A stretch of 45,329 bases of DNA from a virus (lineage: Duplodnaviria; Heunggongvirae; Uroviricota; Caudoviricetes). Shown piece by piece: positions 35,786 to 36,539 of this stretch. Position 1 is the stretch's first letter. Every line of letters starts with the position of its first letter. The stretch lies in IMG/VR virus record IMGVR_UViG_2541047734_000008, positions 1-45,329 of that record. The stretch is one strand, 5' to 3'. Below the pieces are notes generated by a model, which had not been told where the DNA came from, ran no database searches, and saw only the letters and a list, made by a program, of their open reading frames with translations. A program made the translations under genes and the position numbers.

Positions 35786-35810
35786 AAAAGAAAAACCCGC
35801 AAAAGCGGGC
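35786..35810 (-). terminator. Intrinsic terminator between tRNA cluster and holin
   Basis: Minus strand CCCGC-TTTT-GCGGG followed by TTTTTCTTTT. Confidence 0.55.
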
Positions 35811-36016
35811 GAAACGATATATACAGAAAGGAAAGCACTCTATCCAACAAACCACCCACAGTTAATCGGAATAAAAGCAGAGTGCTTATGAATGATCGCC
35901 TGCTCGAAGGTTAGTATTTCTGCACAGCAATTTTGCAAAAAAAGGCGATCATTCATAACTTAAACGTCTTTCAGTCACTCCGGGATTTCCCATCATCGCA
36001 GACTGAAAGACTCTAA

Positions 36017-36091
36017 CTGGAGCGGGCAGCGGGAATCGAACCCGCATCATCAGCTTGGAAGGCTGAGGTAATAGCCATTATACGATGCCCG
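36017..36091 (-). tRNA. tRNA-Gly (anticodon UCC)
   Basis: Manual fold: 7-bp acceptor GCGGGCA/TGCCCGC, anticodon stem TCAGC/GCTGA, loop CTTCCAA, T-loop TTCGATT, 3' CCA encoded. Confidence 0.8.
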
Positions 36092-36094
36092 CAT

Positions 36095-36170
36095 ATGGTG
36101 CCGACTACCGGAATCGAACTGGTGACCTACTGATTACAAGTCAGTTGCTCTACCTACTGAGCTAAGTCGG
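36095..36170 (-). tRNA. tRNA-Thr (anticodon UGU)
   Basis: Acceptor GCCGACT/AGTCGGC, anticodon loop CTTGTAA, T-loop TTCGATT, CCA encoded. Confidence 0.75.
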
Positions 36171-36172
36171 CA

Positions 36173-36249
36173 CTGGACCGCCACCGGGGACTCGAACCTC
36201 GCACACTCAACTTAAAGGGTTGACGCTCTTTCCTGATGAGCTAGTGGCG
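36173..36249 (-). tRNA. Atypical tRNA-like gene, anticodon UUU (Lys) by position, with C at position 33
   Basis: Acceptor CCGCCAC/GTGGCGG, anticodon stem TCAAC/GTTGA, loop CCTTTAA, T-loop TTCGAGT with one T-stem mismatch, CCA encoded. Confidence 0.5.
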
Positions 36250-36250
36250 G

Positions 36251-36326
36251 CTGGTGGCCCTTGCTGGATTTGAACCAGCGACCTGGCGATTATGAGTCGC
36301 TCGCTCTCACCACTGAGCTAAAGGGC
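36251..36326 (-). tRNA. tRNA with CAU anticodon (Met or lysidine-modified Ile2)
   Basis: Acceptor GGCCCTT/AAGGGCC, anticodon loop CTCATAA, T-loop TTCAAAT, CCA encoded. Confidence 0.75.
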
Positions 36327-36430
36327 CGGGCGCAGGATAATAACGTTACGAAATCAATGTTGCAAGCATTCAAAAATCACCCTTATCTCCTCCACTAGCG
36401 CATTCACCATGTCTATCCGAGATAAGTGGC

Positions 36431-36453
36431 ACAAAAAACCCGCTTGTGGGCGG
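36431..36453 (-). terminator. Candidate tR'-like terminator downstream of Q
   Basis: CCCGC..GCGGG hairpin flanked by A6 and T-run (bidirectional look); about 60-70 nt downstream of the candidate late promoter. Confidence 0.45.
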
Positions 36454-36504
36454 GTTTTGTTTGCTTTTGCCATCACGTACAAAATCGGCAAAATATCAGA
36501 TTTG

Positions 36505-36539
36505 CATGAAATATATGCCTTTCAATCTACTTTTGCAAC
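36505..36539 (-). promoter_or_regulatory. Candidate late promoter (pR'-like) at the 3' end of Q
   Basis: TTGCAA, 17-bp spacer, TATATT-like -10 on the minus strand. Confidence 0.4.

Follow-up and report, generated by a model that had tools for sequence, protein, structure and literature searches.

We analyzed a stretch of DNA of 45,329 nucleotides (hereafter the window; IMG/VR virus record IMGVR_UViG_2541047734_000008, positions 1 to 45,329), which carries a segment of a lambdoid E. coli prophage, with respect to the region between its Q antiterminator gene and its lysis genes. The elements of interest are all located on the minus strand, where the genes are ordered DUF968 protein, RusA, Q, tRNAs, holin, YdfR/DUF1327, lysozyme and Rz. 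Approximately 195 nucleotides of non-coding DNA separate Q from the tRNA genes, and approximately 290 nucleotides separate the tRNA genes from the holin gene. An earlier sequence-only reading had proposed that a promoter at the end of Q, a terminator, the tRNAs and a second terminator reproduce here the pR'-6S-tR' logic of lambda with tRNAs inserted. Our analysis indicates that the region very probably carries a late-gene antitermination switch of the phage 82 type, with an autonomous tRNA unit inserted in its leader. The elements assigned to the switch are the following:

36522..37217, minus strand: Q antiterminator gene of the Q82 family, a 231-amino-acid open reading frame from GTG (stop codon 36524-36522)
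36510..36538, minus strand: predicted late promoter pR', with -35 hexamer TTGCAA (36538-36533), 17-nucleotide spacer and -10 hexamer TATATT (36515-36510)
36503, minus strand: predicted transcription start (+1), the first A of AAATC, 7 nucleotides past the -10 hexamer
36487..36498, minus strand: predicted sigma-70-dependent pause element, with TG at +6,+7, the -10-like TATTTT at +9..+14 and GCC at +15..+17
36479, minus strand: predicted pause site (+25), placed from the phage 82 pR' numbering
36465..36493 (+11..+39), minus strand: leader hairpin UUUUGCC-N15-GGCAAAA, from folding
36433..36458, minus strand: predicted terminator tR', AAAACCCGC-CCACAA-GCGGGUUUU followed by a U-run

Q and the predicted late promoter

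Homologues of the window Q begin two codons later than the GTG, at MN. The protein matched Pfam PF06323 (Phage_antiter_Q) with E = 8.6e-92, which was the only Pfam match at E ≤ 0.01. It was found to be 77% identical over 229 amino acids, i.e., full length, to the experimentally characterized Q protein of phage 82 (X92588), and 74% identical to Q of phage 434, annotated as 'Q82-like'. Three unrelated families of Q proteins are distinguished, Q-lambda, Q21/Q933W and Q82 (bioRxiv 10.1101/651190). Since the window Q belongs to the Q82 family, the system to compare with is phage 82 rather than lambda. A sequence search of PDB with Q returned only an insignificant match, to a Listeria endolysin, and hence no sequence-detectable solved structure for the Q82 family.

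We compared the window with 67 Q82-family loci (9 phage records and 58 genome loci from many enterobacterial genera), which gave 63 unique leaders. The phage 82 record X92588 stops at the Q stop codon, and the leader of the phage 82-like PhiR47_2, with a Q protein 97% identical to 82 Q, was therefore used as a proxy for 82 pR'. A literature search by leader sequence for phage 82 pR' gave unrelated matches only.

The promoter-like TTGCAA-17-TATATT that the sequence-only reading had pointed out at the 3' end of Q is present at 36538-36510, with its -35 hexamer overlapping the last codons of Q. Seven promoter-like matches were found in 2.5 kb, against 2.9 ± 1.8 expected, and the bare match is not significant. 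As such a match means little by itself, the evidence must come from comparison with relatives. The composite motif TTGCAA-N17-TATATT-N11-TGATAT occurred once in the window against 0.01 expected, even with two mismatches allowed, and its spacing was fixed in approximately 60 of the 63 unique leaders. The -35 hexamer was TTGCAA in 57 leaders and one base off in the others, the spacer was 17 nucleotides long in 62, and the -10 hexamer was TATATT in 44 and otherwise CATATT, TACATT or similar. TG(A/G)TAT started exactly 11 nucleotides past the -10 hexamer in 61 of 62 leaders, followed 3 nucleotides later by a GC-rich triplet (CGC or GCC) in 59. The Ala-Lys codons beneath the -35 hexamer were invariant in an otherwise variable Q C-terminus, which points to a constraint at the DNA level on the -35 sequence. 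The sequence elements, their exact spacing, their conservation throughout the family and their homology to phage 82 were all observed directly. The phage 82 promoter and pause design is in this way kept at exact spacing across many enterobacterial genera.

A perfect match to the CII-box consensus TTGC-N6-TTGC was also found on the plus strand at 36533..36546, opposite Q and overlapping the pR' -35 hexamer. It possibly represents a paQ-type antisense promoter; the annotation of phage 434 assigns CII binding and the paQ -35 to the equivalent site. Only 11 of the 63 family members carry this site, and the conservation of the -35 hexamer is consequently not explained by a CII box.

The pause-inducing sequence of 82 pR' is a -10-like hexamer at +9..+14 with an extended -10, followed by a GCC 'discriminator' at +15-17 and an AT-rich stretch at +18-25 (PMC5001585). 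The paused RNA ends in U at +25, and a one-base insertion at +18 places a G at the paused RNA end, from which a G at +24 follows (PMC5001585). With +1 set at 36503, the window has the AT-rich GATTTTGT at +18..+25, with G at +24 and U at +25. The full-length alignments to the Rfam families isrJ and isrK begin at 36506 and 36505, respectively, close to the predicted start. The PhiR47_2 leader is identical to that of the window from +1 to +17 and differs at +18..+25, where it reads AATGTTGT. With this start, the window sequence matches all the published positional features of 82 pR', and pausing is predicted to take place at the same position.

We considered whether the promoter match could be fortuitous, the hairpin at 36433-36458 merely ending an early operon and the lysis genes using another promoter, either that of the tRNAs or one in the spacer. 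Promoter-like matches as good as this one occur often (7 against 2.9 expected), the hairpin has an A-tract upstream and a T-tract downstream and could work on both strands, and a real promoter is present downstream, before the tRNAs. However, a fortuitous match would not be expected to keep its -35, spacer length, -10 and TGATAT at exact spacing in approximately 60 of 63 unique members from many genera, nor to agree with every published positional feature of 82 pR'. In addition, the tRNA promoter has its own terminator before the holin gene, and a constitutive promoter feeding holin and endolysin would kill the lysogen. We consider a fortuitous match extremely unlikely.

The predicted first terminator and leader RNA

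The sequence-only reading had placed a hairpin terminator at 36431..36453, some 60-70 nucleotides downstream of the promoter, which is correct to within a few bases. The tR' hairpin consists of the stem strands CCCGC (36454-36450) and GCGGG (36443-36439) around the loop CCACAA, with an A-tract (36458-36455) before it and a run of six T (36438-36433) after it. Folding of the 76-nucleotide leader gave -24.7 kcal/mol (z = -3.6). By a strict terminator pattern, a terminator-like hairpin was found within approximately 130 nucleotides after the promoter in 60 of the 63 unique leaders. The terminated RNA is predicted to be approximately 71 nucleotides long (36503 to approximately 36433) and to consist of the leader hairpin and the terminator.

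Where other family members have a leader hairpin, it is formed by different but pairing sequences (GTCGxC...GxCGAC; CTGCC...GGCGGCA). The leaders were of two classes, a short one in which the terminator follows only a few bases past the predicted +25 pause (compared with the window for loci L001, L015, L020, L023, L026, L030, L038 and L045), and a long one with an extra hairpin that is lineage-specific yet pairing. Since the short class has no leader hairpin, this hairpin is not essential to the switch.

Short RNAs regulated by antitermination are known from the late promoters of lambda (6S RNA), 21, phi80, 82 and P22 (PMC7547250). The corresponding RNA of the window might, besides its part in the switch, serve as a trans-acting regulatory small RNA in the lysogen, like StxS or IsrK of Gifsy-1. 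StxS, the pR'-tR' RNA of Stx phages, is synthesized in the same manner, binds Hfq and activates rpoS (PMC7547250), and both IsrJ and IsrK were detected as stable RNAs, with IsrJ ending at its intrinsic terminator (PMC4825925). The window leader has a hairpin and a terminator with a U-tail (z = -3.6, as above) and aligned over its full length with Rfam isrJ (RF01393) and isrK (RF01394). However, the scores of 24.5 bits (gathering threshold 37) and 22.7 bits (gathering threshold 50), respectively, were below threshold. Between pause element and terminator the leader was also poorly conserved; this part occurs in several unrelated versions and is missing altogether in some members, which argues against a conserved seed sequence. 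A specific trans-acting role for the approximately 71-nucleotide RNA is thus possible but unsupported, and we regard it as rather unlikely; it would add to the switch and not replace it.

The probable tRNA unit and its structured trailer

The region between tR' and the holin gene holds the following features:

36337..36365, minus strand: predicted promoter of the tRNA cluster, TTGCAA-17-TATTAT with a GC-rich discriminator, 9 nucleotides before the first tRNA
36252-36327, minus strand: tRNA gene with anticodon CAU, ileZ-like (RefSeq: tRNA-Ile)
36174-36250, minus strand: tRNA gene with anticodon UUU, 'Lys'
36096-36171, minus strand: tRNA-Thr gene (UGU)
36018-36092, minus strand: tRNA-Gly gene (UCC)
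35834..36016, minus strand: structured trailer of the tRNA unit, with hairpins A (36016-35960), B (35957-35887) and C (35886-35834)
35786..35810, minus strand: predicted second terminator, GCCCGC-UUUU-GCGGGU followed by UUUUCUUUU

The tRNA cluster after the first hairpin was confirmed as four genes at 36018..36327. That tRNAs are inserted in the late leader, as had been suggested, was upheld. A TTGnnn-17-TATTAT/TATCAT sequence was found 9-10 nucleotides before the tRNA in 31 of 33 unique regions upstream of homologous first tRNAs, with diverging spacers and flanks. The block 36380-36174 is 91% identical over 207 nucleotides to the ileZ-argN block of Stx phages, and this similarity starts at the tRNA promoter. 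In the Stx2 phage Sp5, mapping placed a primary start site for tRNA transcription in the interval from tR' to stx2 (PMC7547250). The comparison indicates that the tRNAs are not passive cargo and have a conserved putative sigma-70 promoter of their own. TCGGCA-16-TATAAT at 36104-36077 in tRNA-Gly was considered as a further promoter and rejected as a chance match to the D-loop.

The second terminator lies, exactly at the coordinates first assigned to it, just before the holin gene (ATG at 35725). Its hairpin GCCCGC-TTTT-GCGGGT (35810-35795) is followed by TTTTCTTTT to 35786 and has a folding energy of -11.5 kcal/mol (z = -4.75). A strict scan detected a terminator-like hairpin 7-36 nucleotides past hairpin C of the trailer in 41 of 58 unique contexts; the 17 missed include weakened CCGC/GCGG stems, which such a scan would reject and which were seen but left uncounted. 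The stems following the trailer differ in sequence among lineages and occupy the same position. In the curated record of HK639, an annotated terminator with a different stem is found at the aligned position. Most likely, the second terminator represents the end of the tRNA unit and not a second tR'.

Autonomous promoter-gene-terminator units in prophages are termed morons. By sequence, the tRNA block has its own sigma-70 promoter upstream and its own factor-independent terminator downstream, and the simplest reading is that promoter, tRNAs, trailer and terminator constitute a moron lodged in the late leader. Insulation of the tRNA block by its own promoter and terminator would explain the presence of a second terminator just before the lethal lysis cassette. 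The layout is independent of Q type, as HK639 has the same layout with a Q21-family Q.

Among the 58 Q82-family genome loci (L011-L068), 22 were found to carry one to four co-oriented tRNA genes after Q and the terminator, approximately 70-1200 nucleotides from the Q stop codon. In some Q82-family loci (e.g., L030) the tRNA starts a few bases from the terminator U-run, which leaves no space for a promoter of its own. The second tRNA of the window (36174-36250) was compared with those of loci L077, L081, L090, L108, L150, L175, L194, L199 and L202. The acceptor, D and T arms were common across the prophages and the variation was concentrated in the anticodon loop, which reads Arg UCU, Lys UUU with C33 instead of the near-universal U33 (the window), Phe, Leu or ochre UUA, or is a non-standard loop of 5-8 nucleotides. 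This variation could be decay, or it could reflect selection on the anticodon.

The trailer between the tRNAs and the second terminator folded with z = -4.9 and -5.9. In an alignment of 35 diverse sequences of hairpins B and C, standard pairs were found in 98% of cells, compared to 34-50% with slid partners. Eight pairs were changed on both sides, and the covariation score reached 0.234, whereas slid partners gave 0.097 at most. When viral contigs were scanned for the pattern, hairpins B and C were recovered at more than 100 loci, with the conserved loops UUUUUGCAAAAUUGCUGUG and GGGUGGUUUGUUGG. As the structure includes many G-U pairs, it is specific to the late-gene strand. No Rfam match was obtained for the trailer (best E = 1.1), a search of the literature with its sequence found nothing, and it was not annotated in the genome records examined. 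Where enough upstream sequence was available, tRNA clusters were found at most 400 nucleotides upstream of the trailer in 51 of 56 contexts.

Several identities of the trailer were considered and rejected. A coding function (39-codon open reading frame, 35955-35836) was discarded since HK639 has a one-nucleotide indel that disrupts the frame, whereas the stems show covariation. IpeX of DLP12 was discarded as nmpC of K-12 is encoded on the opposite strand and no similarity is seen upstream of essD, and an AgvB/AsxR anti-small RNA since no sequence match was found in the window. Nor is the trailer tied to Q type, being present in only one of the fetched Q82-family loci and in HK639 behind a Q21-family Q.

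We tentatively suggest, with rather less than even confidence, that the trailer is an undescribed, widespread structured RNA of lambdoid prophages, either a stable 3' trailer small RNA set free from the transcripts of a constitutive tRNA operon or a processing or stability element of the lysis mRNA, traveling with a tRNA cluster whose variable anticodon loop could reflect selection by host anticodon nucleases and not decay. We also considered a put-like antiterminator RNA acting in cis, as in HK022, with which readthrough of the second terminator would be independent of Q. Two covarying stem-loops with conserved loops immediately upstream of terminators would fit such a role. The element is also found in HK639, which is said to use RNA-mediated antitermination elsewhere in its genome. 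However, a probably constitutive promoter lies upstream, so that holin and endolysin would be expressed in lysogens, and for this reason a put-like role is improbable. The trailer, at approximately 125-190 nucleotides, also far exceeds the put RNAs of approximately 70 nucleotides (PMC9378689), and its place after tRNA clusters in 51 of 56 contexts suits a 3' trailer better. Altogether, we give a put-like element only a slight chance; the live options are that the trailer is processed into a 3' RNA or that it acts in mRNA processing or stability. This covariation-supported unannotated RNA, together with a tRNA scaffold that has a hypervariable anticodon loop, may merit study.

The probable late switch compared with known phages

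A phage 82-type switch with an inserted tRNA unit would operate as follows. In the lysogen, the sigma-70 promoter pR' (36538-36510) would fire without Q. RNA polymerase that has retained sigma-70 would pause at approximately +25 as sigma region 2 rebinds the -10-like sequence TGATATTTT at +6..+14, and would then escape the pause and stop at tR' (36458-36433) to give the RNA of approximately 71 nucleotides. The tRNA promoter (36365-36337) would separately produce the four tRNAs and the structured trailer, and this transcript would end at the second terminator (35810-35786), shielding the holin gene from constitutive transcription. Upon induction, Q would be made from the early rightward transcript, bind the site between the -35 and -10 of pR' and join the paused complex. 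The polymerase would become termination-resistant, pass tR', the tRNA genes and the second terminator, and extend transcription into holin, ydfR, endolysin, Rz and terminase; only polymerase from pR' modified by Q would pass. This fits with the lysis and terminase genes continuing on the same strand downstream.

Some points weigh against such a switch. The pR' hexamers score only 9/12, and matches of this quality are common by chance. The -35 hexamer lies over coding sequence, as does part of the spacer, and this accounts for some of the conservation. The Q-binding element of 82 pR' is located between -35 and -10 (PMC4914094), and the window spacer, which presumably contains it, differs from the 82-like spacer of PhiR47_2 at 5 of 17 positions; binding of Q to the window spacer is consequently an assumption. 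Promoter activity, pausing, Q binding, termination and readthrough for the window allele we infer from homology, and the assignment of the second terminator to the tRNA unit is suggested by comparative association. Last, the prophage copy may be defective, with a truncated large terminase that abuts an integrase, and the switch may no longer yield phage.

Phage 82 and the window share the Q family (77% identity), a promoter overlapping the 3' end of Q, the pause geometry and a predicted intrinsic terminator thereafter. They differ in the sequence of the tR' hairpin and in the tRNA unit that the window has between tR' and holin; PhiR47_2 has no annotated tRNA at that place. The window switch is a new allele of the thoroughly studied phage 82 class of late switches, and Stx phages and HK639 already show such an arrangement. 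The useful refinement is one of architecture, with the tRNA block as an insulated unit.

The lambda pR'-6S-tR' scheme of the sequence-only reading holds for the core logic, by homology to phage 82 pR', while the proper relative by Q family and pause geometry is phage 82. Features in common with lambda would be a late promoter active without Q, a sigma-dependent proximal pause and the loading of Q at a promoter DNA site. Termination would likewise give a short RNA, and the lysis genes S-R-Rz would be reached by processive readthrough. In lambda, however, Q is of another family, the pause element lies at +1..+6 with pausing at +16/17 (+6..+14 and +25 in the window), and the pR'-tR' leader is 194 nucleotides long, compared to approximately 71 in the window. 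The window switch would thus work like that of lambda without being a member of the lambda Q/pR' class.

The Stx phages (933W, Sp5, H-19B) have the order Q, pR', tR', ileZ/argN/argO, stx and lysis genes. They share with the window a tRNA block with its own promoter after tR', 91% identical over 36380-36174 with the promoter included. They differ from the window by stx genes between the tRNAs and the lysis cassette, by their Q family (the Stx2 phage examined has a Q of 162 amino acids), by a tR' distance of 258 nucleotides compared to approximately 70, and by an Arg anticodon in the second tRNA compared to UUU. The window adds Thr and Gly tRNAs and the structured trailer.

HK639 was found to have the same order as the window, i.e., Q, a short leader with terminator, tRNAs, hairpins A-B-C, a terminator and the lysis genes, with four annotated terminators. 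Its trailer is 75% identical, with compensatory stem changes. Its Q, however, is of the Q21/Q933W family (PF06530), and it has further leader modules, including a match to STnc100 above the Rfam threshold. At the HK639 locus (L070, 1755-1827 and 2254-2459), the tR' hairpin was found to be one to two substitutions from that of Enterobacter loci of the Q82 family, the leader scored 34.6 bits against isrJ, and the STnc100 match lies farther down this late leader. Exchange of terminators and small-RNA modules seems not to be tied to the type of Q.

AntQ of Salmonella Gifsy-1 belongs to the Q82 family and is 67% identical to the window Q, with the match ending at residue 220 of 231. The same motif as in the window, TTGCAAAA...TATATT...AAATCTGATAT, is found at the homologous promoter and the 5' end of isrJ. 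Unlike in the window, this motif is located approximately 840 nucleotides past antQ, behind an inserted isrK-orf45-anrP segment. At the Gifsy-1 locus (L010, 1179-1310 and 330-560) the Q82-type motif at the isrJ promoter immediately follows anrP, and the final codons of this gene agree with the Q82 C-terminus (IAKLD). It would appear from this that the isrK-orf45-anrP segment entered close to the 3' end of Q, and that P-isrJ, not P-isrK, is the cognate late promoter responding to Q.

A stretch of 901 nucleotides of the window region was present at 99-100% identity in sequenced E. coli phages, and at least 80% of it was held by 282 of 5426 complete E. coli genomes (approximately 5%). RefSeq annotation of this stretch is limited to Q, the tRNAs and the holin. 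Among the open reading frames of the window and the RefSeq annotation, no coding genes, stx included, were found between tRNA-Gly and holin. For this prophage type, which occurs in approximately 5% of complete E. coli genomes, the present analysis locates the late switch to the base.

The neighboring genes are the following:

37580-38701, minus strand: DUF968 protein
37208-37567, minus strand: RusA
35510-35725, minus strand: S21-type holin, ATG at 35725 (Pfam PF04971, 'Bacteriophage P21 holin S', E = 1.4e-35)
35191-35505, minus strand: YdfR/DUF1327, between holin and endolysin
34602-35135, minus strand: lysozyme
34138-34620, minus strand: Rz
32040-32522, minus strand: small terminase, on the same strand as the lysis genes

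The holin gene, which is the first late gene, has a dual start (MKSM...) and is preceded by the Shine-Dalgarno sequence GGAGGTGA. The large terminase open reading frame (minus strand, within 29618-32040) was truncated to 397 amino acids and matched the nuclease-domain profile at the first 68 of 286 positions only. It abuts a tyrosine integrase gene (29618-30877, minus strand), and an AAA_25 protein is encoded farther along (24846-26261). The block of integrase and AAA_25 resembles a further mobile element, perhaps a satellite, that has inserted into a late prophage gene. A GNAT acetyltransferase is encoded on the opposite strand between Rz and the small terminase (33474-33959), and a homologue of QueH (epoxyqueuosine reductase) in the region upstream of Q (39464-40150).

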